Assembly: GCA_039815185.1 (NCBI GenBank)
Contig: JBCBZT010000008.1
Coordinates: forward strand, 32,001-96,000
Source: Cyanobacteria bacterium P01_A01_bin.123
GTDB lineage: Bacteria > Cyanobacteriota > Cyanobacteriia > Phormidesmidales > Phormidesmidaceae
DNA: 64,000 nt
Reading direction: 5' to 3'
The notes under the pieces: generated by a model
What the model was told of the DNA's origin: nothing
Databases searched by the model: none
The model's input: the letters and a program-made list of their open reading frames with translations, nothing else
Shown here: piece after piece, positions 25,460-44,728 of the stretch
Position numbering within the stretch: the stretch's first letter is position 1
Layout of the letters: every line of letters starts with the position of its first letter
Program-made: the position numbers and the translations under genes

Positions 25460-26803
25460 ATGGTCGGTTCATCATCAGTGCGGGCGACGACGCTGAAGCA
25501 AGCCTTTCGGGTATGCAACTTGGGGGCGCTGACCGGGGCTGAAATCAAGCGCTACTATGTAGAACTTTCTGCCGCCCGCAGTCAAGCCGCGATCGACAAC
25601 GTCAGTACACAACTCGATTTTTTAGAACCGGGGGAACCCGCAGCGATTCTGTTCACAGGGCATCGGGGCTGTGGCAAGAGTACGGAGCTTAAGCGGATTC
25701 AGCGCCATTGGGAACTGCACTATGAAGTGATCTACATCAAGGCGACGGACGAACTCGACATCAACGACACAGACTACAAAGACATCTATCTGGTAGTGAT
25801 CCAATATGTGACGGCGGCGATTCAGGATTGGGGGCTAAAGCTAGACCCAAAGCTAGTGAAAGAATTTGAGGATTGGTTTAAGCAGATCACGGGCGAAACT
25901 GAGGAAAAAGTTGAAAGTTCTGTCAGCGTCAGCGGTGAGGTGGAGGCTGGGCAGCAGTTTCCGTTTGTGTTTAAGCTGATGGTGAAGCTGCTATCGCAAA
26001 TCAAGGGGTCGGATACGTACAAGCGCACGATTCGCGAAGACTTGCAGCAAGGTTTTTCTCGCTTGCAAGAGAATACCAATAATCTGCTCAAGGATGCCTA
26101 TGCCAAGCTGCGGGAAAAGAAACCCAACTGCAAAGGCTTTTTGATCATTTTGGATAATTTGGATCGGGTGCCACCGCAGGTGGGGGAGCATCTGTTTTTG
26201 AAATACGCCAATCAACTGCGGGAGCTGCACTGTGTGGCAATCTACACCGTGCCGATTTCGGTGATTTATTCGGGCCAGAATTACAGCAATGCTTTTGGTG
26301 AGCTAAAGATGATGCCGATGGTCAATATCTATCGCTATCAGCCTGACCAAGTGGATTTGGCATACGACTTGGCAGGGGTAAAACTGATGGCGACGTTGAT
26401 TGAGCAGCGGGTGCAGGTGGATGCATTGTTTGAAACGCCAGATTTGGTAGAAGAACTGGTGAAATTTAGCGGCGGGCATATGCGGCAACTCATGCAGCTG
26501 ATGCGCAATGCCTGCTTGACCGCCGGCACCCGAGGCCACAACAAAATCACCGCCGCCGACATTCAAGAGACGGCGAATCAAGAACGCTTTAACTTTGAAC
26601 GCAATATTCCCAGCGATCACTACCCGATTTTGGGGCAGATTTGTCGCACTAAGGAATCACCCCGCGAGCTGGAAGCACAGCAGAAGATGCAGTCTATGCT
26701 ATTTAATATCACCGTGCTGGAATACGTCACTGGCCCGAAGCGGTGGATCTATGTGAATCCCCTCGTGAGGCAAATCGATGCCCTCCAAGCCGTCCTGGAT
26801 TAA
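25460..26803 (+). CDS. P-loop NTPase (STAND/KAP-like AAA ATPase), module 1
   Basis: LFTGHRGCGKSTEL Walker A, LIILDNLDR Walker B, YTVPI, SGGHMRQLMQL, VLEY...NPLV. Confidence 0.88.
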   Translation: MVGSSSVRATTLKQAFRVCNLGALTGAEIKRYYVELSAARSQAAIDNVSTQLDFLEPGEPAAILFTGHRGCGKSTELKRIQRHWELHYEVIYIKATDELDINDTDYKDIYLVVIQYVTAAIQDWGLKLDPKLVKEFEDWFKQITGETEEKVESSVSVSGEVEAGQQFPFVFKLMVKLLSQIKGSDTYKRTIREDLQQGFSRLQENTNNLLKDAYAKLREKKPNCKGFLIILDNLDRVPPQVGEHLFLKYANQLRELHCVAIYTVPISVIYSGQNYSNAFGELKMMPMVNIYRYQPDQVDLAYDLAGVKLMATLIEQRVQVDALFETPDLVEELVKFSGGHMRQLMQLMRNACLTAGTRGHNKITAADIQETANQERFNFERNIPSDHYPILGQICRTKESPRELEAQQKMQSMLFNITVLEYVTGPKRWIYVNPLVRQIDALQAVLD

Positions 26804-26824
26804 GAAAACTTTGAGCCGCTTTAT

Positions 26825-26856
26825 TCCCCCTTTTTTAAGGGGGGCAGGGGGGATCG
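26825..26856. repeat. Cyanobacterial small dispersed palindromic repeat inside the TPR reading frame
   Basis: TCCCCCTTTTTTAAGGGGGGCAGGGGGGATCG, translated as part of IPPFLRGAGGI. Confidence 0.6.
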
Positions 26857-27666
26857 CGACAAGTGCCCACACCCCACAGACAACACCCGACCCAACCGAG
26901 GAATTTATCAGCCTCAACGAAGAAGCCATTGAAAAGCTGGCAACCTTCATCGACTTTGCCGAAGGCTTCACCATTGGCTTTGTGGAGATCAACTTTCTTG
27001 CCGATCTCGACATCCTGATTCAGCATTTGGCAACCCATCCCGACTGTGCCGACGCTCAGTTTATAACGCTGACCCTAGACGACCCGAATCTGAGGTTTCT
27101 AAAAGATGAACTCGTCAAGCGGTTGGCAAACGAAACCTTAGTACCCGACAAAAAGCCGATTATTTGGATTCAAGGGTTAGAACAGTCTATTCACATGTCG
27201 GGAGATTATCCCCCGATGCTGAACGACTTGAACTTTGTGCGCGATGCCTTTGTGGACTCCGTGCCCCACCCGGTGCTGTTTTGCCTACCCGATTACGCCA
27301 TTAACCGGGTTATTCAATACGCCCCGGACTTTTGGAGTTGGAAGTCGGGTCTGTTTCGGTTCAAAACCCGTCCTTCAACCCAGAAATTTGCAGCGGATAG
27401 CACCATCTTTTCTGACCGGATTCGTGAAAGTCTGTTGCTAGAAGACTGGCAGGAACGCATTGACCAACTGGAACGGCTGGTCATGGAGTATCGGCCTTCT
27501 GGCAGTCCAACGCCACCAGAGCTAGAGAATTATTGTTGGGTTTTATCAGAGTTAGGGATTGCCTATCGTGGGCAAGGCAATGTTACACAAGCTGCTTTCT
27601 ACCTCCGGCAAGCCATTGATATCACTGAGAATCAGACGAGCGCACAATCGCAGCGGGCATTAGCTT

Positions 27667-28270
27667 TACATGAGCTAGGCATTCTCAAAGCCAACCAGGG
27701 CGAGATTGAAGATGCGATCGCCCTCTACCAACAATCCCTCGACATCAAAGAACAAATCGGCAACATCCATGACAAAGCCGCCACCCTGCATCAACTTGCC
27801 ATCCTCAAAGCCAACCAGGGCGAGATTGAAGATGCGATCGCCCTCTACCAACAATCCCTCGACATCAAAGAATAAATCGGCGACATCAAGACTAAAGCTG
27901 CTACCCTGCATCAACTCGCCATCCTCAAAGCCAACCAGGGCAAGATTGAGGATGCGATCGCGCTCTACCAACAATCCCTCGACATCACAGAACAAATCGG
28001 TGACATCCAGACCAAAGCCGCCACCCTGCATCAACTCGGCATTCTCAAAGCCGACCAGGGCGAGATCGAAGACGCGATCGCCCTCTACCAAGAAGTTCTA
28101 GCTATCGATGAACAAACTGGCAACATCCAGGGCAAAGCCGCCACCCTTCATCAACTCGGCATGCTCAAAGCTAACCAGGGCGAGATTGAGGACGCGATCG
28201 CCCTCTTTCAAGAATCCCTCAACATCACAGAAAAAATCGGCGACATCCAAACCAAATCTATGACGCTTCA
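27667..28270 (+). repeat. About five tandem 120-nt (40-aa) TPR-coding repeats
   Basis: Recurring CTCAAAGCCAACCAGGGCGAGATTGAAGATGCGATCGCCCTCTACCAACAATCCCTC with 120-nt period. Confidence 0.9.
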
Positions 28271-28519
28271 GTGGATTGGGGGATTAGCCGCAGATGTTCA
28301 AAAGGACTATGAGACTGGGATTCAATGCTTCCGAGAATCCCTAGAAATTTTGCAGCGCATTGGCTCCCCGAAGGCCGAAAATGCTGAGCGTCAGTTAGCA
28401 CAGATTCAAGCACTGGCGGCTGAGCAGGCAACAACTTCTGAACCATAAAGCAGATTTGGATTTTGGCTTTCAAGGGGCTGAATTTGAATGCAACTGAACA
28501 AATCGTGCGTGGTCTCTAA

Positions 28520-29239
28520 ATGTGGCGATTACACTCCTTTGAACTGAAACCGGCGAGTTTAGATTTTTCTGATCGAGGCATTTGCTCAGTACAGCAACTT
28601 TGGGCCAATGGCCAACGCTTGAGCAATGCAATCAACCTGGTAGATTGGGCGACAAACTCAGCTCAACTCGAAATCTGTGAAGTCTGTGGCATCGTCGGTT
28701 GCGCTGATGGCGGCTGGGTTAGTCTACGTCGCAGTGGTGACTGGGTGCTGATGGTACCTGCTTGGGAAGCGATCGCATCCCGTCCAGACCTCCCCGGCTA
28801 CTACGATCCGCCGTCTTATTTGGTGAAGAACCAGCAGGGCGTCCCCTATTGGCATCAAGCCGACTACCAGCGCTGGCAAGACGAGTTACCTGTAACCCTG
28901 CCAGATCTAGAGACCATTGCACCCCTAACCGCCCACGAAGTCCTGAAAGCATTTCAAATTGAAGCCCCAGCGCGCGTGCTAGGCCGGCTATCTGACCCGC
29001 CTCGACTCAACCCCGAGAGCATCGTGGCAGCATCCGAGGGCAGCCACCTAGAATTGTTACCCCAACTGCAAACCACGATTAAGAAATGGCTCAACTGCGA
29101 TCGCCCTGTCCACATGTCCCCCATCGGCCCAACAGACACCGTGGTTCAGCTTTATATCGATGTTGCAGGTTTTCCTGAATGGTCAGTCTTGGTAGACCCC
29201 GAACGGCTGTATTTACAACCTGGCTTCGCGATCGCTTGA
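28520..29239 (+). CDS. Hypothetical protein with a CxxC-x4-C cluster
   Basis: 239-aa ORF with normal codon usage; ICEVCGIVGCADGGWV; no family recognised. Confidence 0.7.
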   Translation: MWRLHSFELKPASLDFSDRGICSVQQLWANGQRLSNAINLVDWATNSAQLEICEVCGIVGCADGGWVSLRRSGDWVLMVPAWEAIASRPDLPGYYDPPSYLVKNQQGVPYWHQADYQRWQDELPVTLPDLETIAPLTAHEVLKAFQIEAPARVLGRLSDPPRLNPESIVAASEGSHLELLPQLQTTIKKWLNCDRPVHMSPIGPTDTVVQLYIDVAGFPEWSVLVDPERLYLQPGFAIA

Positions 29240-29294
29240 GGGTCAGCTTGGAATTACATCCTTACCAAATCATCCCAAGCTTCTCTAGCTAACC

Positions 29295-30092
29295 TCAAAG
29301 ACTCAATGCAAGTTGAATCGTCCGCTTAGGAGGCTTCAGATTTTCTGGCAAGGGCTCTGGCTCGGGACGCACCGCTGGGCAATGGCGGGCAAACGAACAG
29401 CGATCGCACTGTTTCCCCGTCTTCGGTTGCCAGGTTTGATCGGTCAAAAGCTGCACTGCCAAATCGCTGATCAACCCTTGAACCCTTGTTTTTTGCTCAG
29501 CGCTGGCCTCAAAGCTAATCTTTTCTCCCGTGCGCAAATAGAGCAGAGTCATCCGTTTGAGGGCAGTATTGTAGCGCTGTTCTAGGGCCAGATAATAGAG
29601 CCCCATTTGGATATCGATCGCTTGGGCATCAGGGCGTTGGGGATCTTTGGCAGACTTGTAATCGATCAGCTCCAATCCATCATCAAGCGCATCGAGGCGG
29701 TCGTAACGTCCGCTCAACTTAAACTCGATACCCGACACTTGGAGCTGACCCTGGATGCGACTTTCTACGGCTAACGGACGCCGTAACGCGGGCAATGGCA
29801 AAATATGCTGCTCATAATACTGCTTGAGAATCTGCCAGCCCTCACTCGCCTGGGCTGCACTCAACCCAGCGGACTGGTGTTGCCAGCAGTCGGTGATCCA
29901 ATGGAGCAGCGGTAGCGGATCGAGATAGTGCCACTCACTATAGATTTGAGCCAGGGTGCGGTGGAGGGCTTGCCCCAGGGCAGCTGCCCCAAATACAGCT
30001 GCATCGCCCAAGCCATACTCATAGTGGAAGTAGTAGGCACGGGGGCAGCGGTGATAGGTTTTAAGCTTGGTCGCAGAAAGGTGATAAGCCAT
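29295..30092 (-). CDS. PD-(D/E)XK RecB/AddB/Cas4-like nuclease
   Basis: LSATKLKTYHRCPRAYYF, GRYDRLD...LIDYKS, QMGLY, C-terminal CDRCSFARHC (1+3 Cys Fe-S staple pattern). Confidence 0.88.
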   Translation of the reverse strand: MAYHLSATKLKTYHRCPRAYYFHYEYGLGDAAVFGAAALGQALHRTLAQIYSEWHYLDPLPLLHWITDCWQHQSAGLSAAQASEGWQILKQYYEQHILPLPALRRPLAVESRIQGQLQVSGIEFKLSGRYDRLDALDDGLELIDYKSAKDPQRPDAQAIDIQMGLYYLALEQRYNTALKRMTLLYLRTGEKISFEASAEQKTRVQGLISDLAVQLLTDQTWQPKTGKQCDRCSFARHCPAVRPEPEPLPENLKPPKRTIQLALSL

Positions 30093-30234
30093 AATGCCGA
30101 GAGGTTAGCAGATCTCAGCTAGAGTGGCGGCATTTTGCTCAAATCTGTTGCTAAACGAATAACGCCGCAAACTTTTGCCAGCGCGAACAAGATTCCGCCT
30201 AAGATCGGAGGTGAGCTTCTTCTAACCCAATGCA

Positions 30235-31680
30235 ATGGTCTCCTCCAATCCTCTGCTTAGCCTCGATTTTGAACCTGCGCTGCAATCGTTGGGCGATGAC
30301 TATTACGATCAAGTCGCGGCAGCAGAATTTCCCCAGCACACCCTCCGGTTTCGCAATGATGCCGTTCTGGGCCAGATGGGGCTGGATCCAGCCACAGTCG
30401 CCGACGCGCAGGTGGTCGAAGCCTACGGCAAGTTTCAAGGGCGTGAACCCCTGCTGGCTTTGCGCTATCACGGCTACCAGTTTGGTGAATATAACCCCGC
30501 CCTGGGAGACGGTCGCGGTTTTCTTTACGGTCAGGTGCGAGGGCTCGATGGTGAACTCTACGATTTGGGCACCAAAGGCTCTGGCCCTACTCCATATTCT
30601 CGTGGCGGGGATGGGCGCTTAACCCTGAAGGGTGGCGTACGAGAAGTGTTGGCCGCAGAAGCACTGCATGCCTTGGGGGTCAATACCTCTCGTTGCTTGA
30701 GCATAATTGAAACGGGGGAAGGGCTGTGGCGAGGCGATGAACCGTCGCCGACGCGATCGTCAGTGATGGTGCGCTTTAGTCGATCCCATATCCGCTTCGG
30801 CACCTTTGAACGGTTTGAATTTTTCAAGCGTCCTGATTTAATTCGCAAGTTGCTCGATCACGTGATCGAGGTTTACTATCCCCATCTGCAAGCAATCGCC
30901 GATCGTCAAGAACGAGACGCCAAATTCTATGCTGAACTGGTACAGCGAACAGCGGTTTTAGCCGCCCAGTGGATGTCTGTGGGCTTTTGCCACGCCGTCC
31001 TCAACACCGACAACATGTCGATTACCGGAGAAAGTTTTGACTACGGCCCCTATGCCTTTATGGATCAATATGATCCAAGCTTTACAGCCGCCTATTTTGA
31101 CTATTCGCGACGCTATTGCTACAGGAATCAGCCGATTATTTGCAAGCTCAATCTAGAAATGCTGCAAAAGCCGCTCAAATTGGTGATGGCCGAAGCAGAC
31201 TTGGCGGCAGGACTGGAGCAATTTGCTGCTCACTATCAAAACCACTATCACACTCGCATGCTCAAGAAGCTGGGATTTGATTCATTAGAGTCCGATTTGG
31301 CCGATGAGTTATTAGCCCAAACCCTGCGCTTACTGGAACAGACCCAGGTGGGTTACCACGATTTTTTCACAGGCATCACCCAGCAGTTTGCACCCGGTTG
31401 GCGCGAAGACTCAGACACGATCTTGAGTCCGACGATGCAGGCTTCTGACGCCGATGCCCAAACCCTGCTGGATAACTGGCGACAAATCTATCATCGCTGC
31501 TTGAATCAAGTCCCCAAGACTGCGCTTGCTTCCATGGCCCAAACCCTGAAGCAAACCAATCCCGCAATTGTGTTGCTGCGCCCTGAAATTGAAGCCATTT
31601 GGGAACCGATTACCATAGAAAATAACTGGCAGCCCTTTTACGAACTAATCAAGAAGATTCAGTCACCCTTTGATACTTGA
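30235..31680 (+). CDS. selO: Protein adenylyltransferase SelO (YdiU family)
   Basis: [66 protein letters not shown]. Confidence 0.95.
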
Positions 31681-31727
31681 GTTGATACTTGAGGCGGATC
31701 TGACTTTGATACTTGAGGCGGATCTGA
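31670..31727 (+). repeat. Nested direct repeats starting in the selO stop region
   Basis: TTGATACTTGAG x3 (31670, 31682, 31706); TTGATACTTGAGGCGGATCTGA x2 (31682-31703, 31706-31727). Confidence 0.9.
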
Positions 31728-31756
31728 ACTAGCGCAAAAGGGTAAGTATTCATGCA

Positions 31757-32185
31757 CTACTGCGACTTTTTTATATCTGAAAAAAGGATAATAAATCCCT
31801 CCTGAGTAAAGTGTTTATCATGGGTCAACACTTCAACAATATTCATTTTCTGCATCACGACCATGGAAATACAGTCTGTCAAACTATAAGCCTTATCTGA
31901 ACGCTGACCATAGAGTGACATGCCTAACTCTCGTACTTCCGATGTGTAAGATACGATGCTTATTCGAGGTTCGCGTACCATTTGAGTGCACAATGCCAGA
32001 GCTTTCTGGCGCATCAAAGCGCCTTGAGTTGAAGCGTAGTTGAGAACTTCATCCAAGACACCATCCGTTGTTACAAGTGGGATGTTAGGATTTTGGCGAG
32101 TATAGTGGAGAGCTGATTTATGCCAGTCATCTCTTGGGTTTAAGAGAGCAAGCCAATAGAAAGTGTCGGCAAAGACAGACTTCAC
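31757..32185 (-). CDS. vapC: PIN-domain (VapC) toxin
   Basis: VFADTFYWLALLNPRD, VLDEVL, YSLTDCIS, LTHDKHFTQEGF; 4-nt overlap with the upstream gene. Confidence 0.9.
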   Translation of the reverse strand: MKSVFADTFYWLALLNPRDDWHKSALHYTRQNPNIPLVTTDGVLDEVLNYASTQGALMRQKALALCTQMVREPRISIVSYTSEVRELGMSLYGQRSDKAYSLTDCISMVVMQKMNIVEVLTHDKHFTQEGFIILFSDIKKSQ

Positions 32186-32439
32186 GTTTGTTGCAATCCC
32201 TTTTTGGGTGTGCCGTAAATATAGTGATTATGCTCAACGGCTCCATCAGTCGGCAATGTATCGAGTATCTGGGGTGGGATATCGGCAGTCAGTTCCTCTA
32301 TAAATTCTGAAAAGGGTGTTGCTTGTCTTTGTTGCCGATGATATTTCATTTTTGCTAGCAATAGGAAGTCAAGCAGTTCTTCAATTACAGGGTTTGGAAC
32401 CTGTTCGATTTCACGGATAAGCAGCTCTTTAGGGGTCAT
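32182..32439 (-). CDS. Putative antitoxin (DUF2281-like)
   Basis: MTPKELLIREIEQVPNPVIEELLDFL...LPTDGAVEHNHYIYGTPK; GTGA coupling to vapC; ATG 32439 preferred over the track start. Confidence 0.8.
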   Translation of the reverse strand: MTPKELLIREIEQVPNPVIEELLDFLLLAKMKYHRQQRQATPFSEFIEELTADIPPQILDTLPTDGAVEHNHYIYGTPKKGLQQT

Positions 32440-32501
32440 GACCAGTCCCGAACGTCCTGAGCTTATTGTAGTTGTTCTGACGATCTCAAGTAAAAAGCTG
32501 A

Positions 32502-33164
32502 TTGACAACAGTATTGTCGTTAAATCGTAGAAATGTTTGTTTGTTAGGGGTGATATTGATCCAACTCCAGCACATCCCCAAAATGATTCGGGCACAGCGT
32601 GAACATCGCTTTGGGGACTTTGCCATTCTCAAAGCTGATTTGCTGGGGGCTAAAGCAAATGATGCGATCGCGCCTCAATTAACGTCCGTCATAGGCTACT
32701 ATCCCCCCATTGATCTAGACGCCTTGCTGCAACTGCCCCAGGACAGCTTTGGCTATGCCTATGCCCAGCACATGAACACTAACCAACTCACACCAATCCA
32801 TGTGAGCCCAGCATTAGATGAAGTGGCGCGTCGCAATGTGTTTGCCCTCCGCTATGCCGTGACGCATGACATTTTCCATGTGTTGTTAGGGTTTGACACC
32901 AGCTATGCCGGAGAAATTGGCGTTCTGGCTTTTGCGGTTGAGCAGGGCTATAGCGAGGGGCAGAAGTTTGCTTTGACCTTGGCCAAGTTGATTTACCCCA
33001 TTCTGGCACCGGGGCAAAGGCAGGCGATCGCGGCCAATGTGAAAACAGGTCAGGCGATCGCCAAACAAGCCGATTTTTTGTTGGGATATCGCTTTGAAGA
33101 CCACTGGCACGAGCCTTTAGAAATAGTGAAAGCTCAACTTAGATTAGATGGAATCAAGAATTAG
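32502..33164 (+). CDS. Coq4 family protein (start uncertain, probably downstream of 32502)
   Basis: LLQLPQDSFGYAY, RYAVTHDIFHVLLGF...GEIGV (HDxxH-x11-E motif). Confidence 0.85.
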   Translation: MTTVLSLNRRNVCLLGVILIQLQHIPKMIRAQREHRFGDFAILKADLLGAKANDAIAPQLTSVIGYYPPIDLDALLQLPQDSFGYAYAQHMNTNQLTPIHVSPALDEVARRNVFALRYAVTHDIFHVLLGFDTSYAGEIGVLAFAVEQGYSEGQKFALTLAKLIYPILAPGQRQAIAANVKTGQAIAKQADFLLGYRFEDHWHEPLEIVKAQLRLDGIKN

Positions 33165-33343
33165 GAAACTTGCAAGAATGGTGATCAGAAACCAGCATAA
33201 TACGACCCGTTCCTAATCACCGCTCTCCCAACCAGTGAGTGCACCCCAGCCATAATTGGTGCATTAGCTATCAACACCATCCTAAACACGGGAAGTGAAT
33301 GATTTCAGTAACGCTGCTGTTCCAGTCAGGGATTAGGATTAAC

Positions 33344-35185
33344 CTAACCCACCTCAGTCGCCACAATCCCGGTTAAGTCATCAAGCTGAGCCATATCGAG
33401 GGGCCGTCCTCCAAAGTTGTCATACATCCTCGCCAATGCGCCTGTAAACGCAGCGTTGTAGTCCAAGGCCACCTCGTTAGCAATAAAATCAGTGCGCACA
33501 TCTTGATAAGCAAAATCATCAGGCGCAGAAGGCCCACCCACTAAGGCCCCATATAGGACATGCTCATTGGGGGCTGAATCGCTGATATTCGTCGTCCCTG
33601 AAGCGGCCCGATGGTGGGGATTCAACGGAGATTCTTCACCAAACCCAACCATATAGCTAAAGTCGTTGGGATTATCCCCCAGGATGTAGTCGATTTGGCT
33701 TTCCGCAAACTCTGAATACTCGCCATTCGGGTCATTAACGGTATCACTATAAACACCAGCTAGAAAAGCCGTATTCGCGGAATACCGGAGCGACCCCCAC
33801 TGATCGAGCCAGGCTAAGCCGCCGTCTGTATAGGATACGCTACCCCCCGGCATCCAGGAGTTGAGCCAACTTTCAACATCATTGCGATATCGAGCGTCAC
33901 CCGTCTCCTGAGCCAGCAAAATTGCGGCACCATAGGATTTGTTATCCCAAGATTGAGTCCAACCGGGGCCAACACTTTGGTAGGCGCTTTCAGCCTTATT
34001 GAGATAGGTCGTATCGGTTTGGCCACTCGCTTCGATCGCTTTATGCAGCCAAACTGCCCCCCAAGTCAGTTCATCGGCGTAACCACTCCATGAATTGTAA
34101 AAGGAGGCCGCATCGGGAATTGCATCAGAATAGTTACCCCGATAGGTATCGGCAAAGTCGTAAAGCTGGATGGCGTTTTCCAAAAGCTTATCGGCATAAT
34201 TTGAATCACTTTCTCGAAACGCGATCGAAGCTGATGCCAGTGCCGCCGCCGCTTCACCCGCTAAATCAGACCCAGGATTTTGCCGATCAATCTTGTAGGC
34301 AGGCCGCGCCATGGTCATATCTTCGGGTGCGCCCCAGTAAGCATGATCGATATCACCATCGCCAACCTGGCCCCAAAATTCTTTGGTCCCGTTGGCATCG
34401 GTGACATGCGCCTTCAGCAGGTAGTCTGTGCCCCATTTGATCGCCTCGAGGGATTCATCCAGCTGCCCACTCTGCTCATAACCCGCCTCATACTCATCTA
34501 CCCCCCAACTCAGCAGGGTCATCGCGGACGCCATGGGCAGACCGAATTTAACATGGTCTCCGGCGTCATAGTAGCCACCGCTTAGATCCACGCCAACATC
34601 AGCACCGTCATTGAGGGCAGAATCGCCCCGCCATTCAATCCGGTTGTCGTCAGGTAAATCGCCAGAACGCTGGGCCTCATAGAATAACAAGGATTTTTGT
34701 AGCGCTTCACCATAGTTGAATTGGCCTGATCCAGCTGGATTACCTGATGGATCCGTTGGGTCGGGTGTTGGATCAGGGGTTGGGTTGGGTGTCGGATCGG
34801 GCGTCGGATCGGGGGTTGGGTCGGGTGTCGGATCAGGGGTTGGATCGGGTGTCGGATCGGGCGTCGGATCAGAGGTTGATGCTAAGGGCTCGCCATTGAG
34901 CTGATAATTGCCAATCTCAATAGCTGCTCCGTTGGGTTTGGCACCATTAAAACCAAAAGTAATCGTGTCTCCGGATGAAACGTTGCTATTCCAGTCGAGA
35001 TTGCCGATGACATAACGGTTGCCTTCACGGCTAAGAATCTCGGCATTCCAGATGTTGGAAATCTCAAAAGAAGCCTCAAATTCAATCGTCCATTCACTCA
35101 AGTCATCACCGGGATTGACCAGCGAAAAATCGGCAGTAAAACCACTGCCCCAATCGTTTCTCACGAAGAGCTCAGCTAAATTCAT
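33344..35185 (-). CDS. Endoglucanase: CBM2 - Pro/Thr linker - GH9 catalytic domain
   Basis: NDWGSGF...IWNA...ITFGFNG (CBM2); (PTPD)n linker; YGEALQKSLLFYEAQRSG, GGYYDAGDHVKFG, PHHRAAS, GALVGGP, NEVALDYNA. Confidence 0.95.
   Translation of the reverse strand: MNLAELFVRNDWGSGFTADFSLVNPGDDLSEWTIEFEASFEISNIWNAEILSREGNRYVIGNLDWNSNVSSGDTITFGFNGAKPNGAAIEIGNYQLNGEPLASTSDPTPDPTPDPTPDPTPDPTPDPTPDPTPNPTPDPTPDPTDPSGNPAGSGQFNYGEALQKSLLFYEAQRSGDLPDDNRIEWRGDSALNDGADVGVDLSGGYYDAGDHVKFGLPMASAMTLLSWGVDEYEAGYEQSGQLDESLEAIKWGTDYLLKAHVTDANGTKEFWGQVGDGDIDHAYWGAPEDMTMARPAYKIDRQNPGSDLAGEAAAALASASIAFRESDSNYADKLLENAIQLYDFADTYRGNYSDAIPDAASFYNSWSGYADELTWGAVWLHKAIEASGQTDTTYLNKAESAYQSVGPGWTQSWDNKSYGAAILLAQETGDARYRNDVESWLNSWMPGGSVSYTDGGLAWLDQWGSLRYSANTAFLAGVYSDTVNDPNGEYSEFAESQIDYILGDNPNDFSYMVGFGEESPLNPHHRAASGTTNISDSAPNEHVLYGALVGGPSAPDDFAYQDVRTDFIANEVALDYNAAFTGALARMYDNFGGRPLDMAQLDDLTGIVATEVG
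34752..34870 (-). repeat. 12-nt tandem repeat encoding the DPTP linker
   Basis: About 10 copies of Asp-Pro-Thr-Pro with synonymous variation. Confidence 0.9.
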
Positions 35186-35642: not shown

Positions 35643-35664
35643 TGGATAACCTTTGAGTGCCTAT

Positions 35665-36756: not shown

Positions 36757-38238
36757 ATGTCTGAGCCCAATGGCGTGATGATGCAATACTTTCACTGGTA
36801 CATCCCCTCGGATGGGAACCTTTGGAATCAGGTCAAAGATCAGGCTAAAGATTTAGCGGCGGCTGGGGTTACGTCTCTTTGGCTACCCCCTGCCTACAAA
36901 GGCACAGGCGGCGGTTATGACGTCGGCTATGGCGTTTACGACATGTTCGATCTGGGGGAGTTTGATCAAAAAGACTCAGTTCGGACTAAATATGGCACTA
37001 AGAATGAGTACATCGCGGCTATTCAAGCCGCCCATACAGCGGGTATTCACGTTTATGCTGATGTCGTCTTCAACCACAGACTGGGAGCCGACCAAACTGA
37101 AGAAGCCGAAGCCAGACCCTTCAACCCCGATGATCGCAACCATCCCCTCGGTGATTACCGCACCATCCAAGCCTGGTCTCATTTCACGTTTCCCGGTCGG
37201 CAGGGTAAGTATTCTGACATGGAGTGGCACTGGTGGCACTTCGACGCCGTGGACTACAACGCCAGAGGCGATGGCCCCCAGGCCGTGTATCTCTTCAAAG
37301 ACAAAGCCTTCGACCAAAACGTCGATTTAGAAAAGGGCACCTTTGACTACCTGATGGGCTGCGACCTCGACATGGCCCACCCAGACGTCCAAAACAACCT
37401 CAAAGACTGGGGCGCTTGGTTTGTCGAAACCACCGATGTGGATGGCTTCCGGTTTGATGCCGTGAAGCATGTGCGGGCAGAGTTCTTTTCGGAATGGCTG
37501 CACCACTGTCGCCAGCAGTCTGACAAACCCCTGTTTGCAGTGGGCGAGTATTGGTCTTACGCGGTGGAGGCGCTCCATCACTTTATTAAAGTGACCGACG
37601 GGGATGTGATGTTGTTTGATGCCCCGTTGCACTACAACCTCAGCGCCGCCAGTACGGCAGGTTCAAGCTATGACCTGCGCCAAATCTTTGACAATACTCT
37701 GGTCAAACAGCAACCGGCTTTAGCCGTCACCCTGGTTGAGAATCACGACTCCCAACCGCTGCAAGCACTGGAATCGGTTGTAGAGAGTTGGTTTAAGCCC
37801 TTGGCCTACGCCTTAATTTTGTTACGGCGCGATGGGTATCCCTGTATTTTCTATGCCGACTATTACGGGGCCCATTACACCGACAAAGGACGCGACGGCA
37901 ATGAGCATGAAATTTGGCTCGACAGCCATCAATGGATCATTGATAAATTTCTAGAGGCCCGTCGCACCTACGCCTATGGCGATCAGTATGACTACTTTGA
38001 CCACGCTAATACCCTCGGTTGGACGCGGCTGGGAGATGAAAAACATCCGGGTGGCATGGCTGTGGTGCTCAGCAACGGCGAGGCGGGGACAAAATGGATG
38101 GAAGTGGGCCAAGCCGACTGTACCTATATTGACTTGACGGAACACATCAGTGAGTCGGTCACAACTAACGATGAGGGTTGGGGTGAGTTTCGCTGTAATG
38201 GCGGGTCGGTATCGGTTTGGGTGCCCCAGGCGTCATAG
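36757..38238 (+). CDS. amyA: Cytoplasmic alpha-amylase (GH13)
   Basis: NGVMMQYFHWY, WLPPAYKG, DVVFNH, GFRFDAVKH, GEYW, VENHDSQP, GGSVSVWV. Confidence 0.93.
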   Translation: MSEPNGVMMQYFHWYIPSDGNLWNQVKDQAKDLAAAGVTSLWLPPAYKGTGGGYDVGYGVYDMFDLGEFDQKDSVRTKYGTKNEYIAAIQAAHTAGIHVYADVVFNHRLGADQTEEAEARPFNPDDRNHPLGDYRTIQAWSHFTFPGRQGKYSDMEWHWWHFDAVDYNARGDGPQAVYLFKDKAFDQNVDLEKGTFDYLMGCDLDMAHPDVQNNLKDWGAWFVETTDVDGFRFDAVKHVRAEFFSEWLHHCRQQSDKPLFAVGEYWSYAVEALHHFIKVTDGDVMLFDAPLHYNLSAASTAGSSYDLRQIFDNTLVKQQPALAVTLVENHDSQPLQALESVVESWFKPLAYALILLRRDGYPCIFYADYYGAHYTDKGRDGNEHEIWLDSHQWIIDKFLEARRTYAYGDQYDYFDHANTLGWTRLGDEKHPGGMAVVLSNGEAGTKWMEVGQADCTYIDLTEHISESVTTNDEGWGEFRCNGGSVSVWVPQAS

Positions 38239-40104
38239 CCCACAGGTTTCTACCTGAACGAAAGTTCTCAGTAATCTTGTCAGATCATTGAGGATAAAAT
38301 TTCTAGACGTCTCCTCACCAAAAAACTCAACGGTACCTTGGTAATCGTCCAACTGTGGTAGATGTCCCTTTGGGGCGTCTAGGGATAACTTTTGGTTAAA
38401 GCGCCAAACGTCTGGCTCTTTCCAACCGACTTGTTCTGCAAATTTCAATAGGAAGGGCTGAGCTGTTTCCCGATCCCGAGTATTTTCGAGGGTTCCGCCG
38501 ACACTTTTATAAATCTCCTTTTGCACGCTAAAGCCAAAGCGATTGTCGCTGTGCTCTAGCCAGAGTTGGTCAAGCATGCGTAGGTCTTCGCACGCTAGCT
38601 CATTAGTAGTAGCAGTGGCGGATGTCAGAAAGTTCAACATTCTAAAGGTTTCTACATTGGCATCTTGCCAGCGTTGAGCGGCTAAAAGCTGGCGCAAATT
38701 GGCGTAGTAATCAGACGAGAGGTAACTCGATGAAGCCAAATTCAGCTCATCAGGGTTTGTCCATGAGTTCGGGTAAGTTGGGTTGTCAGTGGGGGCAATA
38801 TCTACCCAAGGTGGGGATTCACTGGAGGGCGCGATCGCGTTAGGGCTAGCGGTTGGCTCAGATGGGGATGTCTCTGATTGGGATGACTGTTCGCTAGGGG
38901 GACGCATTAAGACAATGGATAGGGTGACTACAGCTGCGATCGCGACGCCGACCCCACCTAACTGGAATAACCGCTGCCGACTCAAGCTGAACGATTGACG
39001 GGTTATCGGTTGAGCGGCTACAGGTTGAGGGGCTGCTGGGAGTAACGCTGCTTCAACAGGTGCAATATCGTCATGCTGCAACCCTAAAAGGTGCTGAAAC
39101 TGCTTGAGCTCTCTGCGGGTTTGATCGCTCAAGGGTTGTCCGGACGCGATCGCAGTCTCAACCGCCTGACGATACCGCTCTATATTGCTCAACCGCTCCC
39201 GGTATGGATGCAAGACTTCATCTTCGATTTTGTTCGCCGTTTCAGTGGTTAAGCCCAACTGGTCGCGTAGGGTATCCAAAATCATGCGACCCACCTGAGA
39301 AATTTCCCCCTGATTGACATAGCGCTGGGCTTCTTGGCGGTAACGCAGTGCTGGATCGTCAATTTGAGCCCGGATCAGCTGAATCTTGAACCCTTCTTTA
39401 ACGGCATAGATTTCCGGGTGCATGGCGGGGGCTGTTTCTCGCACTTTGCTCTTGGCGTAGTTGTGGAGTTCTTCAACATCAACCCAACCATCGTGGTTGA
39501 GATCGGCAACCCCCGTACTCAAACCTTCAACAATGTAGCGGGTATAGATAGAGAGATCCGACGATTGGTCTTCGAAGGAATATTGGGTCGAGGTTGATGA
39601 GGTAAGCACGACTCGCCCTTCACCCCCCAGTTGGGCCTTGATGTCTACGGCTGAGTCATCGGCTTTTGCCGTCATGCCCGTGGCAAACGCGCCACTGAAA
39701 CAACAGTCTAAAATCACAACCTGCCGTCTGCAGCGGCTATGGCTCATCAGCTCTTGCACAAAGCTGGCATTGACCGCTGTTGATCGAATCAATTCGCCAG
39801 TGGCTGTTTTCTGCGTATCTCGTGTGGCGAAGTAAAGCCTGCCCTGGTCATCTTTAATGCCGTGGCCTGAGAAGAACAGCAAAGCTAAGTCGTCTTTAGA
39901 TCTTTCTGCAAACAAAGACTCTATTTTGACCCGCAAGGTCTGCGGATCTGGATTTAGCAAGGTTTGGACAGTATCAAATCGACTTTCAGGATCACCGCTT
40001 TGAAGTGCGCGCTGAATCGCGTCGATGTCCTGTTGGGCTTTGGGAAGAGGACTGAGGCCAGGTTGGTACTCACTGACGCCAACTAACAGGGCAACTTTTG
40101 CCAT
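38233..40104 (-). CDS. Caspase (peptidase C14) domain protein with helical repeats, TM segment and C-terminal GUN4 domain
   Basis: KVALLVGVSEY, FFSGHG and ILDCCFSG (His/Cys dyad intact); TM GVGVAIAAVVTLSIVL; GUN4 motifs YANLRQLLAAQRWQDANVET, LDQLWLEHSDNRFGFSVQKEIY, APKGHLP. Confidence 0.9.
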   Translation of the reverse strand: MAKVALLVGVSEYQPGLSPLPKAQQDIDAIQRALQSGDPESRFDTVQTLLNPDPQTLRVKIESLFAERSKDDLALLFFSGHGIKDDQGRLYFATRDTQKTATGELIRSTAVNASFVQELMSHSRCRRQVVILDCCFSGAFATGMTAKADDSAVDIKAQLGGEGRVVLTSSTSTQYSFEDQSSDLSIYTRYIVEGLSTGVADLNHDGWVDVEELHNYAKSKVRETAPAMHPEIYAVKEGFKIQLIRAQIDDPALRYRQEAQRYVNQGEISQVGRMILDTLRDQLGLTTETANKIEDEVLHPYRERLSNIERYRQAVETAIASGQPLSDQTRRELKQFQHLLGLQHDDIAPVEAALLPAAPQPVAAQPITRQSFSLSRQRLFQLGGVGVAIAAVVTLSIVLMRPPSEQSSQSETSPSEPTASPNAIAPSSESPPWVDIAPTDNPTYPNSWTNPDELNLASSSYLSSDYYANLRQLLAAQRWQDANVETFRMLNFLTSATATTNELACEDLRMLDQLWLEHSDNRFGFSVQKEIYKSVGGTLENTRDRETAQPFLLKFAEQVGWKEPDVWRFNQKLSLDAPKGHLPQLDDYQGTVEFFGEETSRNFILNDLTRLLRTFVQVETCGL

Positions 40105-40280
40105 GGGAACTTTGTAAATGCTATTACGGGGGCTGTCTCTGTGTGCTACAGCAGTTTTTGCAGACTTTCAGATTATTATGTCTCTCATTGGCCTTCAATC
40201 AAATATGGAAGTGTTGGCAATACGACTTCTAGAAGCGCCTTCGATATGATGGGTTGAGTCTTTCAGGCAATTGTTTTGTT

Positions 40281-41558
40281 ATGGATCGCATTGCCCAGTT
40301 CACCGAGGCGTATCGCAATCTGAACTTGTTTCCCCTGCTGTCAGCGGAAGATATTGGGCAATTTCGCGTCCCCTATGGTCAGCGCATTTTATCCCGATTA
40401 AAAAGAGCGATTTTGGCTGCGGGGGATGAGGGCAAGCTAATTTTTACCGGGCATCGAGGCTGCGGGAAATCCACCCTGCTGAACCAACTTGCGTTGGACA
40501 TGAGAAAAGAAGATCTCTTCGTCGCTTTTTTCTCCATTGCTGACATGGTGGAAATGTCGGATGTGAATCACATCAACATCCTTTATTCCATCGCGCTGAA
40601 GCTGCTGAGTCAGGCGACGAAGATGCGAGTGCCAATCCCTGAGACGACTAAAACCGCACTGATTAACTGGTTCAGCCAAACAAAGTCTCAAACCTATACT
40701 CAGCAGCTCAAGCAGGAACTTGCAGCAGGGGTGAATGTTTTCGATTTTTTCACTGGCAAGCTGCAAAAGGAAGGCTCTTTTAGAGAAGAGATTAAAGAAA
40801 CTTACGAACGTCGCGTTTCTGAGTTATCTCAGCACATCGATTTAATTGCCGCAGCCATTCAAACCGCGACGCAGAAAAAAGTGCTGGTGATCATTGACGA
40901 CCTGGATAAGCTTGATCTAGAAGTCGTCAAACCCATCTTCTTAGACAACATTAAGGCACTGTGTTCGCCCCATATTCGGGTAGTGTTTACGGTGCCGATT
41001 GCGGTGGTGCGCGAAACTCGGCTGTTGGCTACGCTAGAGTCTGAAAGCCGGATCGTGATGCTATCGGTGACGAAATTTTTCCCGAAGGAAGTCGCCCATG
41101 ACGCTGATGCAGAGCCGATTGAGGCCAATGTGGAGATGCTAGAGAGGGTGCTGGAAAAACGTATCCCCGATGCGTTAATTGAGCCAGACGTTAAACGAAA
41201 AATTGTGATCCTCAGCGGTGGCGTGTTGAGAGAACTGGTGCGGTTGGGCCAAGAATGTTGCCGGGAGTGCATGTTGGAGTTGGACATTGACCCAAAGAAA
41301 ACCGATCTCAAAATCGACCAGGCAATCTTAAAGGAAGCGGTGAAGTCGATACGCAACCAGTTTGCCCGGACTTTGGGCACTAATCTCTATGAATTGCTGG
41401 TTGAAACCTACACAAAATTCACCCCGCCCGATGCTAAGAGCGATGAGTTTTTAGAACTCCTCCATGGGCTATATGTGTTGGAATATGAGAATGACGACCT
41501 GTGGTACGACCTGCATCCCCTGGTGACGGATCTGCTGCGACGCAAAAGTTTGATCTAG
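40281..41558 (+). CDS. P-loop NTPase (STAND/KAP-like AAA ATPase), module 2
   Basis: IFTGHRGCGKSTLL, LVIIDDLDK, FTVPI, SGGVLRELVRL, VLEYEN...HPLV; paralogue of 25460-26803. Confidence 0.88.
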   Translation: MDRIAQFTEAYRNLNLFPLLSAEDIGQFRVPYGQRILSRLKRAILAAGDEGKLIFTGHRGCGKSTLLNQLALDMRKEDLFVAFFSIADMVEMSDVNHINILYSIALKLLSQATKMRVPIPETTKTALINWFSQTKSQTYTQQLKQELAAGVNVFDFFTGKLQKEGSFREEIKETYERRVSELSQHIDLIAAAIQTATQKKVLVIIDDLDKLDLEVVKPIFLDNIKALCSPHIRVVFTVPIAVVRETRLLATLESESRIVMLSVTKFFPKEVAHDADAEPIEANVEMLERVLEKRIPDALIEPDVKRKIVILSGGVLRELVRLGQECCRECMLELDIDPKKTDLKIDQAILKEAVKSIRNQFARTLGTNLYELLVETYTKFTPPDAKSDEFLELLHGLYVLEYENDDLWYDLHPLVTDLLRRKSLI

Positions 41559-41575
41559 AAACCGGGTTTCTTGAA

Positions 41576-43043
41576 CAATACCTTCGCCAAGTTAGGCGGA
41601 GGTAGCGTCGTGAGGAGGGGGATGAATGCGCCCTAAGCTGGCGAGGCGATTGAGCGCCTGACTCCAGAAACTGGGTTTGGTTTTTTGGGGAAGGAGATTG
41701 ATGATTTCGGTGGCATAGCGATAGCCTCGGGCATAGGCCTTGAGGTCGAGAATCGAGGCATTGGGGTCAGTGCGGCGAAACTCATGCAAGAGGCAATGGG
41801 ACAGATTGACCATGAAGAAGGCGAGATTAGCCGCATTGGTAACCGTCGTTTGCCGAATCGTCATGAAGTCTTCAAGCCCCCAGAACTGCTTAGCGTCCCG
41901 GAAATTAAACTTGATTTGGAAGCGCAAACTGTAATAATCGACTAGGACATCAGCCGCCAACGCCAAATCACTACTGAAGAGAATGACATGGCCCCGGGCC
42001 TGCGTGCGCAAGTTAATCTTTTCTAGGATCACGACATTGAGCGGATAGGCAAACTGTTCATGGACAGCGGTGCCTTGATACCGATTGGTTTGAAGGGTGC
42101 CAGTGCGCCCTGAGGTGACGCTCTGCTGGGTCAACCAGGCGACCGGGAGGGCCTGGTAATCGAGTCTAAGGCCATACTTGGCCCGCTTGTTCGAGCCGGT
42201 GTAGGGCTGGTGCAAGGCCAAGTCGCTGCGTAATTTCGAGATCAGATGCAGCCGCTGAGCTCGCACCATACAGAGGGCGTTATTGTTGCCAAAGTGACCA
42301 TCTAAGACCAGATAGTTCACAGTTAACCACCCGCCGATGCGGCTCAGCAGGGCGGCCAGTCCCGCGCTAAGCCGTTGCAGTTCTGGCGTTAAGGTGACCT
42401 CATCTTTGGCTTTCGTTTTCCGTCCCTTGGGGCGTCCTCCCCGCGACACGGGCGCGGGCGAACCGGGTTGGGCTGCTTTCTGCTTTGCCGCTTTCGCCGC
42501 TTTCGCCGCCTCAATCGCCGCTTTCTCCTCTGCCGTACGCACGACTTGCTCCACGCTCACCGGATAGGACTGCCGCTCCCCCACCGCGACCAAGGACAAG
42601 GCGAAAAAGGCTACTCCTGGCACTGCTTTGTCGTACAAGCTGCTATAAAACCGGTCGAGTCCGTAGGTTTGCCGACCTGCTTTGGTGACAACAACCTCGT
42701 CTCCCGCCAGAATATACCTCTCCTGGCGACGGTAACACTGCTGTTGAAACAAGACCCAAAATAAGCTCGCCCACGGAATCACCGTGCTGAAAAACCGCTG
42801 CACACTCCGATAGCTTCCCTCACCCTCCGTCCAGCGTGAGATCCCCAGCATCGTCACCCGCCCACTCATCGCCAGCATCCCCTGGGCTATCCGACTCAAC
42901 CGCCGCACGTTTGTCTTGTCCCAACTCGGTCGCAAGCCTTCTAGGAGCGCTAAAGTGTCTAGCATGGGTTTCTGGATTAGAGGGGTTGTTTGGTTACCAT
43001 CACTCTATTTCAGAAGCCCTTCCTCGTTTTGGCGAAGGTATTG
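41576..43043 (-). mobile_element. Insertion sequence (IS4-superfamily DDE, IS4/IS701-like), 1468 bp
   Basis: Perfect 15-bp terminal inverted repeats CAATACCTTCGCCAA (41576-41590) and TTGGCGAAGGTATTG (43029-43043) enclosing one transposase ORF; higher GC than flanks. Confidence 0.93.
41592..42965 (-). CDS. DDE transposase (catalytic Glu apparently replaced by Lys)
   Basis: LAGDEVV, LVLDGHFG, YSLRFQIKFNFRDAK, where the Y-x2-R-x3-E-x6-K motif has K at the E position (codon at 41910-41912). Confidence 0.9.
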   Translation of the reverse strand: MLDTLALLEGLRPSWDKTNVRRLSRIAQGMLAMSGRVTMLGISRWTEGEGSYRSVQRFFSTVIPWASLFWVLFQQQCYRRQERYILAGDEVVVTKAGRQTYGLDRFYSSLYDKAVPGVAFFALSLVAVGERQSYPVSVEQVVRTAEEKAAIEAAKAAKAAKQKAAQPGSPAPVSRGGRPKGRKTKAKDEVTLTPELQRLSAGLAALLSRIGGWLTVNYLVLDGHFGNNNALCMVRAQRLHLISKLRSDLALHQPYTGSNKRAKYGLRLDYQALPVAWLTQQSVTSGRTGTLQTNRYQGTAVHEQFAYPLNVVILEKINLRTQARGHVILFSSDLALAADVLVDYYSLRFQIKFNFRDAKQFWGLEDFMTIRQTTVTNAANLAFFMVNLSHCLLHEFRRTDPNASILDLKAYARGYRYATEIINLLPQKTKPSFWSQALNRLASLGRIHPPPHDATSA

Positions 43044-43080
43044 TACAAAGAAACCCGGTTTCTGGACAGCCCCAAACACC

Positions 43081-44724
43081 ATGCCCCCACCCGACCTCGA
43101 CCCCCTGAATCAACGCGAGTTTCGCAAGCTGGTGCTGTCGATCGAAGCCAGCGCCCAGCGCCTCGGCCTACTGCTGGCCATCTGCGACGACCGCAACCTA
43201 CAAGATAAGCTGATCACTACCTACGAAGCCGAACTCAAAGACCGGGGCATTACGCCCTTTCGCGCCCGGTTAGACCTGAAGCAACCCAGCCTCCGCGCCA
43301 CGCTGGCAAAACTAGAAGCCCAGGAACCCACCCTCCGGACTGGTGAACCTGCTGTGGTCACCGTGCTCAATGCAAATGAACTGCTCGGTGTGCGGCTGAC
43401 TGACGATAAATCAGAACAAGAGCGCTTTTTCTTTTCGTTGCAGTGGACGCGAGAAGCGTTGCGGCAGTTTAACGTTCCGATTGTGCTGTGGCTTTCTGAT
43501 GGGATTGCGACTCGGTTGAGTCAGGAGGCGAAAGATTTTTGGAGTTGGCGGAGTGGGGTGTTTGAGTTTGTGGCTCAGCCTCCAGCGGTGATTACTTCTC
43601 CATCGCATCTGGCAGGACAAACCACCCACCCTATCCCTATCGAGCAAGACAGCCAAATTCCGATTGAAGACCTGAAACAGCAAATTGCTGAACTGGAAAA
43701 GACTTCTCCAGAGTCACCGTTGCTGATCACGCTGTATAACACGTTGGGCAAAGCCTACGAGCATGAATATGCATATCGACAAGCCTTACAGCTTTACGAA
43801 CAAGCGCTGTCGCTAGCTGAAGCGAAACAAGACTCAGTAGGACAGGCCAGAGCTCTCTTCAACCTAGGTGACTCATTAAGATACTGTGGGCGACCGTTCC
43901 AAACCCTTGATTTCTATGAGCAGGCATTGGCACTTTACCAAGGAAACGAAGATCGCAGCGGTGAAGCCAGTTCCCTCGGCAATCTGGGGATTGCATACTA
44001 TTCGCTGGGTCAGTATCAGCGAGCAATCGAGTTCTATCAGCAGTCATTAGAAATTACACGCAACATTGGCGATCTCAGCGGCGAAGCAAATTCCCTTATG
44101 GGTCTGGGGATTGCATACTATTCGCTGGGTCAGTATCAGCGGGCGATTGAGTTCCACCAGCAGTCATTAGAAATTACACGCAACATTGGCGATCGCAACG
44201 GCGAAGCAAAGTCCCTCAATAATCTGGGGAATGCATACTATTTGTTAGGACAGTATCAACAGGCAATCGAGTTTTATCAGCAGTCATTAGAAATCCAACG
44301 CGACATTGGCGATCTCAGCGGCAAAGCAAGTTCCCTCAACAATCTGGGGAATGCATACGATTCGCTGGGTCAGTATCAACAGGCAATCGAGTTTTATCAG
44401 CAGTCATTAGAAATTCAACGTGACATTGGCGATCGCAAAGGTGAAGCAGCTTCACTTGGAAATCTGGGGAATGCCTACTATTCGCTAGGTCAATATCAAC
44501 AAACCATCGATTTTCAACAGCGGTCGCTAGAAATCAAACGCGACATTGGCGATCGCCATGGCGAAGCCAATGCTTATTTCAATAGTGGATTGGCTCTGTC
44601 AAGATTAGAGAAACATACTGAAGCCCAAGCCTCATTTGAAGCAGCCCGAGAAATATTTTTAGAGCTTGGCTTACAGAATGAAGTTGAACGATGTAATCAG
44701 CAAGTCGAATCCCAGCAAGAGTAG
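43081..44724 (+). CDS. TPR protein with degenerate NTPase-like N-domain, module 2
   Basis: ATG 43081 just outside the IS; N-domain ends LQWTREAL...AKDFWSWRSGVFEF; about 8 TPRs follow. The track start at 42916 is inside the IS. Confidence 0.88.
   Translation: MPPPDLDPLNQREFRKLVLSIEASAQRLGLLLAICDDRNLQDKLITTYEAELKDRGITPFRARLDLKQPSLRATLAKLEAQEPTLRTGEPAVVTVLNANELLGVRLTDDKSEQERFFFSLQWTREALRQFNVPIVLWLSDGIATRLSQEAKDFWSWRSGVFEFVAQPPAVITSPSHLAGQTTHPIPIEQDSQIPIEDLKQQIAELEKTSPESPLLITLYNTLGKAYEHEYAYRQALQLYEQALSLAEAKQDSVGQARALFNLGDSLRYCGRPFQTLDFYEQALALYQGNEDRSGEASSLGNLGIAYYSLGQYQRAIEFYQQSLEITRNIGDLSGEANSLMGLGIAYYSLGQYQRAIEFHQQSLEITRNIGDRNGEAKSLNNLGNAYYLLGQYQQAIEFYQQSLEIQRDIGDLSGKASSLNNLGNAYDSLGQYQQAIEFYQQSLEIQRDIGDRKGEAASLGNLGNAYYSLGQYQQTIDFQQRSLEIKRDIGDRHGEANAYFNSGLALSRLEKHTEAQASFEAAREIFLELGLQNEVERCNQQVESQQE
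43951..44550 (+). repeat. Five tandem 120-nt TPR-coding repeats
   Basis: GATC(G/T)CA..GG.GAAGC...AATCTGGGGA(T/A)TGCATACTATTCGCTGGGTCAGTATCA...CAGTCATTAGAAAT...ACATTGGC with 120-nt period. Confidence 0.9.
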
Positions 44725-44728
44725 TTGT

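Follow-up and report, generated by a model that had tools for sequence, protein, structure and literature searches.

A 64,000-nucleotide stretch of the genome of Cyanobacteria bacterium P01_A01_bin.123, referred to here as the window (G000:C94:32001-96000; the host genome, G000, comprises 8.1 Mb in 133 contigs), contains two copies of a two-gene arrangement. In each, a gene for an ATPase is followed by a gene for a partner protein with an N-terminal domain (N-domain) and an array of 40-residue TPRs. Module 1 spans positions 25460-28448 and module 2 spans positions 40281-44724, all four genes lying on the forward strand. A preliminary description of the window had read these modules as a split NLR-like switch. 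The analysis presented here upholds the pairing and suggests another division of labor, in which the N-domain, predicted to be an AAA+ core without a P-loop, regulates the ATPase through an invariant arginine.

Genes of the two modules

Module 1 begins with ATPase 1 (25460-26803), a clade II protein of 447 amino acids (aa) with intact Walker A and B motifs, a helical insert, a lid and a winged-helix-like end. Partner 1 (26778-28448) overlaps the end of this gene by 26 nucleotides. Its open reading frame (ORF) of 556 codons encodes a putative dead AAA+ N-domain (about aa 40-197, with N152, R155 and D184), a linker and the TPRs, the last from a 120-bp tandem array of 4.8 copies with 84% matches (27678-28256, forward strand). 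The frame holds one in-frame stop, a TAA at codon 366 (27873-27875, forward strand) that falls within the array and leaves the N-domain and about three repeats. Most of the sensor is lost from module 1 in the window. The stop is also present in one contig of run X1, which extends no more than 30 letters past the codon on one side; this argues mildly against an assembly slip, although run X1 may be the source sample. The listed contigs of runs X2-X4 break within the array of partner 1. A short palindromic C/G-rich repeat forms an in-frame insertion at the 5' end of partner 1 (26826-26858) and is absent from the orthologues inspected.

Module 2 begins with ATPase 2 (40281-41558), an intact clade I protein of 425 aa whose nearest named homologues are from Leptolyngbya-type cyanobacteria. 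Partner 2 (43081-44724; 547 aa), also intact, consists of a putative dead AAA+ N-domain (aa 1-165, with Q121, R124, E125 and D152), a helical linker and TPRs encoded by a 120-bp tandem array of 5.2 copies with 82% matches (43951-44571, forward strand). The TPR arrays had been called near-identical, which is true of the repeats within each partner gene and not between the two genes. Between ATPase 2 and partner 2 lies an IS701/IS4-like insertion sequence (IS; 41576-43043, reverse strand) with 15-bp perfect terminal inverted repeats, present as a single copy in the assembly. Its transposase ORF (41592-42965) belongs to DDE_5 and is nearest to IS701. The element is inserted in the loop of a palindromic repeat, of which the left arm (41557-41575) and right arm (43044-43063) flank it and two uninterrupted copies occur elsewhere in the genome. 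A short palindromic repeat is also frequent between ATPase and partner at the orthologous loci L196-L208.

Comparison of 24 orthologous loci places the start of partner 2 at 43081. The IS therefore sits between two intact ORFs without breaking a frame, and module 2 is coding-intact in the window. Of the damage that had been reported for both modules, only the nonsense codon of module 1 stands. The runs, X1-X4, are four and come from one study. Runs X3 and X4 show no cover across the middle of the IS and loose ends at its left edge, with no bridging contig shown, and one contig of run X3 agrees with the first part of partner 2 at about 91%, continues into a different 2 kb and then rejoins the far flank.

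The ATPase

ATPases 1 and 2 share 25% identity (E 8e-28) and the motifs FTGHRGCGKST, IxD[DN]LD, TVPI, SGGxxR, VLEY and PLV, much as first described. The predicted structure of ATPase 2 (predicted local distance difference test, pLDDT, 92.6) comprises an AAA+ core, a lid with a sensor-2 arginine and a winged-helix end, a combination that would place the family in the ORC/Cdc6-TnsC branch of AAA+ proteins. The nearest folds to this model are TnsC (Z 16.2; root-mean-square deviation, rmsd, 3.7; 286 residues aligned), the archaeal AAA+ protein PAB2304 (Z 16.1) and Cdc6/Orc1 (Z 15.5-15.9), with NLR-type STAND proteins at Z 10-13. Across 103 ATPases the Walker lysine and the lid residue R294 are invariant (103/103 each), the Walker B aspartates are conserved, and the sensor-2 (GGxxR) arginine R317 is present in 94.

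Pfam recognizes the ATPases through partial P-loop matches only. ATPase 2 passes the cut-off of KAP (PF07693) by a partial match (26.5 vs 20), and also those of NACHT, NPHP3_N, AAA_22, NTPase_1 and DAP3; ATPase 1 passes none. A transmembrane check found a 19-residue hydropathy window above 1.9 in 4 of 142 ATPases, with a maximum of 2.0. The pair matches no system-specific defense profile in PADLOC 2.0 or NCBIfam 20, where weak P-loop and generic TPR matches are led by PifA (E 1.3e-5) and Sll1717 (34 bits against a cut-off of 75). As had been anticipated, no housekeeping or catalogued defense family in Pfam, PADLOC or NCBIfam explains the pair. Look-alike ATPase clusters in the ESM Atlas are commonest in Myxococcota, Bacteroidota and Campylobacterota, which serves as a lead only, and no relative was found among INPHARED phages or in IMG/VR.

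A dead AAA+ core in the partner

The partner N-domain is, by its predicted structure, the alpha/beta core of an AAA+ protein without its P-loop. The model of the partner 2 N-domain (pLDDT 89) has five strands and six helices, no lid and no winged helix. All 50 rows of a wide structure search are AAA+-type, with TnsC at the top (Z 12.4, rmsd 3.3, 161 residues aligned) and Cdc6/Orc1 at Z 11.3, and Foldseek gives the same AAA+ outcome. Walker A is present in none of 109 N-domains. Kinship with the ATPase is seen by fold only, because a profile-profile comparison of the N-domain and ATPase alignments found no relation (probability 0.2%). A PDB sequence search with the N-domain alignment gave TPR matches only among the best 60 of 87. 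The earlier assignment to degenerate NTPases stands in this sense, at the level of fold.

The N-domains of partners 1 and 2 align by BLASTP over only 35 residues, at 46%. The signature motifs quoted in the preliminary description occur in both proteins; the domain itself measures about 165 aa instead of the 190 first given, and the tryptophans of its DFWSW motif vary in distant members. A profile built from nine N-domains collects 4,593 clusters at 50% identity, and the domain has no Pfam family.

The invariant arginine

The helix after the Walker-B-equivalent strand of the dead domain carries the motif [NQ]xxR[ED] in 109 of 109 N-domains. Its arginine, R124 in partner 2 numbering, is found in every one of these N-domains, a set dereplicated at 80% that includes 23 distant members, and in all 150 database matches; D152 is found in 108 of 109 N-domains. 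In AAA+ proteins generally, this helix ends facing the nucleotide of the adjacent subunit. Among the 103 ATPase sequences, no column in the usual arginine-finger region (columns 240-262) exceeds 35% arginine. What is new here, as judged from these alignments, is that the dead domain keeps an invariant [NQ]xxR[ED] while the ATPase appears to have no conserved arginine at the finger position. The arginine is missing in 3 of 3 members of a divergent partner family that has no adjacent ATPase (L007, L226 and L227). The family is conserved in cyanobacteria and combines a divergent dead domain with a long disordered linker and TPRs.

Partner architectures and ATPase fusions

The preliminary description expected the C-terminal part of the partner to be a variable sensor, and its range has proved wide. 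Partners in clades I-III carry TPR arrays after the N-domain. Those in clade IV carry helical repeats, an active nSTAND1 domain (PF20703) and WD40 or CHASE2, often with a transmembrane helix. Other partners have NB-ARC with TPRs, or a NACHT-like domain with pentapeptide repeats, and single cases have GUN4 or a WecG glycosyltransferase. None of the partners scanned showed an enzymatic toxin domain. From its place in these sequences, the dead domain occupies what is predicted to be the effector slot of three STAND families (nSTAND1, NB-ARC and NACHT-like). An apparent sign of positive selection on the TPR units (five positions with pN/pS 1.0-1.8 vs 0.41 overall; 13 arrays, 41 units) was not counted, because the test is crude, the units are not independent and the search pattern fixes some columns.

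The ATPase also forms the C terminus of vWA proteins in three cases, each from a different ATPase subclade (WP_256874806.1, P0271 and P0273). The gene for WP_256874806.1 lies on a Nostoc plasmid and adjoins MoxR and VMAP-C genes. In MoxR-vWA systems, the effector occupies this C-terminal position of the vWA protein (PMC7159879). A HipA-ATPase fusion (P0272) could have arisen by accidental read-through.

Pairing and distribution

Of 151 genomes sampled from the phylum, 45 have the ATPase, with one to nine copies each. In some families no genome is without it (22 of 22 in one case), and 15 of the 16 listed genomes of the same class that have no ATPase are smaller than 5 Mb. The host genome has nine ATPase genes and ten N-domain genes.

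The genes co-occur across genomes, as the preliminary description required. In a first set of 60 loci, mostly listed matches from near-complete genomes, the partner lies downstream of the ATPase at 55 and upstream only at 1; two intact and two broken ATPases have none. A second set of 82 loci (80 metagenomic and 2 from G079) was reduced by 16 with fewer than 600 bases downstream. The partner is downstream at 63 of the remaining 66, a count made with an iterated profile and including near-duplicates, and at a 64th it is fused in frame. Intact ATPases without an adjacent partner occur on contig C19 of the host genome and at L048 and L089.

The ATPase tree has four deep clades, to which a fifth was added later. 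Module 2 belongs to clade I and module 1 to clade II, and both chains are about 20-25% identical between the modules. Local duplication as their origin is excluded because these two clades are ancient. The nearest N-domain comes from the same ATPase clade in 62 of 62 pairs; ATPase and partner co-diverge. Such matching is also expected from adjacent co-inherited genes; it therefore speaks for a stable partnership and not for contact itself.

Several loci depart from the simple pair. The tandem at L002 (G000:C1:39517-51966) comprises two nSTAND1 partners and three ATPase genes, two of which precede a single partner. The order N-domain-TPR gene, ATPase, N-domain-only gene is conserved at L058, L062 and L107. 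At L185:2-2569, a single ORF encodes ATPase, N-domain and TPRs; it is probably a frameshift of an overlapping pair, because the final 25 or so residues of the ATPase are absent. L225:1675-9621 holds a fifth-clade ATPase, paired with a 2,208-aa N-domain-NTPase-TPR partner, and the plasmid vWA-fused ATPase belongs to the same clade. Clustering of modules was considered and not accepted: 8 pairs lie 8-35 kb apart among 150 listed matches vs about 3 expected, and these represent about 5 independent arrangements.

Neighborhoods, turnover and damage

Clade I is patchy within genera, and 26 of the 60 genomes of the family have it. In clades I and II, almost every locus has different neighbors. In clade III, one locus shows synteny across several genomes, next to hflX or a P-type ATPase gene. 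Plasmid copies exist, one of them between toxin-antitoxin genes and integrases. Broken copies are common; 6 of 62 partners were flagged as split, one of which is a separate gene. Other genes consist of the N-domain only (L058, L062, L068, L107 and L112). Nonsense codons affect 2 of 19 family genes vs 3 of 180 control genes (Fisher p = 0.07). The suggestion that the system is costly, drawn from disruption of both copies in the window, is weak because the IS breaks no ORF and because of this p value. A third damaged module of the genome, at L003:3967-5265 (G000:C104), has a TGA in the ATPase where its paralogues have a cysteine.

Around module 1, a 239-aa ORF with a CxxC lies downstream (28520-29239, forward strand) and has no Pfam, NCBIfam or PADLOC match. 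Further on, a PIN-like 142-aa ORF with a 137-aa ORF upstream (31757-32595, reverse strand) resembles toxin-antitoxin parts, a label from reading with no Pfam match above cut-off. A gene for a protein with Caspase (Peptidase_C14) and GUN4 domains (38233-40104, reverse strand) is divergent from module 2 and 176 bp upstream of it. This domain pair is typical of conflict systems in multicellular bacteria and was not seen regularly beside other clade I loci. After partner 2 follows a 115-aa ORF (44666-45013, forward strand) that reads as toxin-antitoxin-like and has no Pfam match above cut-off.

Proposed mechanism and alternatives

The pair is real, widespread and uncharacterized and, judged from sequence, looks like an immune-type device. 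It would be a two-chain combination of sensor and ATPase from the ORC/Cdc6-TnsC-STAND branch, most likely serving conflict or immunity. One gene encodes an ATPase with intact nucleotide-binding motifs, and the other a nucleotide-blind AAA+ core joined to an exchangeable sensor, either a TPR array or a whole STAND receptor; the genes keep their adjacency and co-diverge. The ATPase presumably has no arginine finger of its own, and the dead domain may dock on it and supply the invariant arginine in trans. A foreign or damage-associated protein in the TPR groove might expose or cluster the dead domains, which could then switch on or nucleate the ATPase. The ATPase, at a guess, would be the output, polymerizing on DNA like TnsC/MuB or wasting ATP, and growth would stop.

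Our tentative reading, held with slightly less than even confidence, is that a variable sensor gates the dead domain, the arginine is donated and the ATPase is switched on as the output of a conflict system. The ATPase is taken as output, regulated by the dead domain through arginine donation, in place of the split NLR-like switch proposed earlier, because many partners are already complete STAND receptors. A broader claim is doubtful: that this is a widespread prokaryotic immune design, in which the dead domain is a plug-in adaptor on several kinds of receptor (bare TPR, nSTAND1, NB-ARC and NACHT) and provides the arginine finger for a TnsC/Cdc6-like ATPase encoded separately, with that ATPase as the effector, driven by ATP to block DNA or else draining ATP, and borrowed also by MoxR-vWA systems. 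Many giant cyanobacterial STAND-WD40 proteins carry the dead domain at the effector position. If it activates the partner ATPase in trans, this would explain how apparently effector-less receptors signal and would add the ATPase to the list of immune outputs.

Several points weigh against activation by a donated arginine in immunity. The orientation of R124 toward the ATP of its neighbor is presumed from general AAA+ architecture, not taken from a model, and the N-domain sequences were gathered with profiles that reward [NQ]xxR[ED] itself. The arginine-less orphan partners are one lineage; six other ATPase-less N-domain genes retain the arginine and one has lost it. The vWA fusions are rare and none showed an adjoining partner, the P0271 gene being at a contig end. 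N-domain-only genes persist beside intact ATPases, which is unexpected for the activator of a lethal output. The remaining points would suit a non-defense module for signaling or assembly, found in large-genome cyanobacteria and in other prokaryotes. The partner would respond to a protein of the cell itself or to a cue from outside, and the ATPase would act by remodeling some cellular target, an account that we consider rather unlikely. Neighboring genes are mostly housekeeping (94 scanned), and the 18 of 150 neighbors from 38 loci with PADLOC profile matches show mostly generic domains, a count without a background control. No nuclease, TIR, SIR2, HEPN or protease domain was found in the partners scanned, and in some partners WD40 or CHASE2 follows a transmembrane helix, an arrangement that points to outside signals. 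The synteny of the clade III locus fits such a role, and the presence of the ATPase in all genomes of several families weighs against defense. A non-defense role is in turn hard to square with the variable copy number, the patchy clades, the changing neighbors of clades I and II, the frequent broken copies, the plasmid copies beside toxin-antitoxin genes and integrases, and the capture of the ATPase by MoxR-vWA systems. The run X3 contig, with its different 2 kb between a retained N-domain region and the far flank, likewise speaks for defense.

The same contact could have the opposite sign. The dead domain would then restrain the ATPase by forcing hydrolysis, as an antitoxin-like guard, and sensing or loss of the partner would free the ATP-bound ATPase. 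Hda acts on DnaA by forcing hydrolysis. Restraint is distinctly unlikely in our estimate, and has the weight it has because truncations tend to spare the N-domain, as in partner 1 and the five N-domain-only loci. An ATPase without its own arginine finger would remain ATP-bound, and an ATPase without an adjacent partner serves as the vWA-fused effector, both of which fit a restraining partner. Intact ATPases without an adjacent partner do not, although orphan partners could act in trans, and the IS of module 2 could be polar on a restraining partner. The N-terminal domain of a STAND receptor is also normally exposed after activation (PMC13581612), which counts against restraint. Finally, the dead domain could be a nucleic-acid receptor, its arginine being either structural or a contact to DNA, and the pair would then share a pathway without catalytic contact. 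Such a receptor role has been proposed for inactive STANDs (PMC8195603, section 19), and for either domain the closest folds come from AAA+ proteins that bind DNA. The strict clade matching and the loss of the arginine in the ATPase-less family indicate instead that the ATPase is the ligand, and with neither lid nor winged helix in the dead domain this explanation is highly improbable.

Relation to known systems

The pair is undescribed in the literature found by a search that covers few subscription journals. Five family-member accessions are absent from seven supplements of PMC13581612, among which the large clade tables are not included.

The nearest known system is the nSTAND2 operon (Kaur, Iyer, Burroughs and Aravind 2021, PMC8195603), with which the pair agrees in one of four tests of membership. 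Both have a gene for an active STAND-like ATPase followed by an adjacent eroded one with TPRs, and the hetero-multimer and conflict role of nSTAND2 are likewise predicted. The inactive module of nSTAND2 keeps a winged helix-turn-helix, whereas in the present pair only the alpha/beta core is left of the dead module. nSTAND2 carries a HEPN or GT4 effector, neither of which occurs in the partners scanned here, and has an arginine finger in both chains, whereas here the invariant arginine is in the dead chain only. The rows listed in the Figure 6 source data (30 of 104) are proteobacterial. The nSTAND2 profile PF20702 has no match in the four module proteins among Pfam families listed at E 0.1 (25 of 26 for ATPase 2 and 25 of 35 for partner 2, the remainder being weaker), and a genome search with it gave 0 matches, with controls equally silent. 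The pair might alternatively belong to the MNS clade (Npun2340/2341) of Leipe et al. 2004, to which PMC8195603 refers.

Inactive STAND-like domains also occur in cyanobacteria in the iSTAND/iSTAND2/VMAP MoxR-vWA ternary systems (Kaur et al. 2020, PMC7159879), and the present ATPase family also occurs as a fusion to their vWA component, at its effector end; this fusion could already appear in the Figure 1 source data of that paper. Unlike in those systems, no MoxR or vWA gene occurs among the ORFs of 20000-50000 or the neighbors scanned. The iSTAND profile PF19995 does not match the partners, and its genome search gave 0 matches with silent controls. Avs/bNACHT STAND receptors (Lee et al. 2026, PMC13581612) resemble the partners in their TPR or WD40 sensors, and the partners themselves contain nSTAND1 (clade IV), NB-ARC or NACHT-like modules. 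Avs proteins are single chains with an enzymatic N-terminal effector, whereas here a dead AAA+ core is N-terminal and the active ATPase is a separate gene. The window partners have no active NTPase, and their clade IV paralogues have nSTAND1 but no enzymatic effector.

KAP NTPases such as PifA and RdrA share with the ATPase a Walker B of the form hhhhD[DN]LD[KR], a long inter-Walker insert and, for ATPase 2, the partial Pfam match. The ATPase differs in being soluble and short, with no transmembrane insert, and in its predicted fold (RdrA Z 10.9 vs about 16 for TnsC/Cdc6). TnsC/MuB and ORC/Cdc6 are the nearest solved folds of both chains. Within this branch, Orc4 and Hda are trans-acting arginine donors from one subunit to another. 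No transposase, origin or clamp gene is nearby in the present case. The pair differs further in the 100-residue insert before Walker B and in fusing the proposed donor to a variable sensor.

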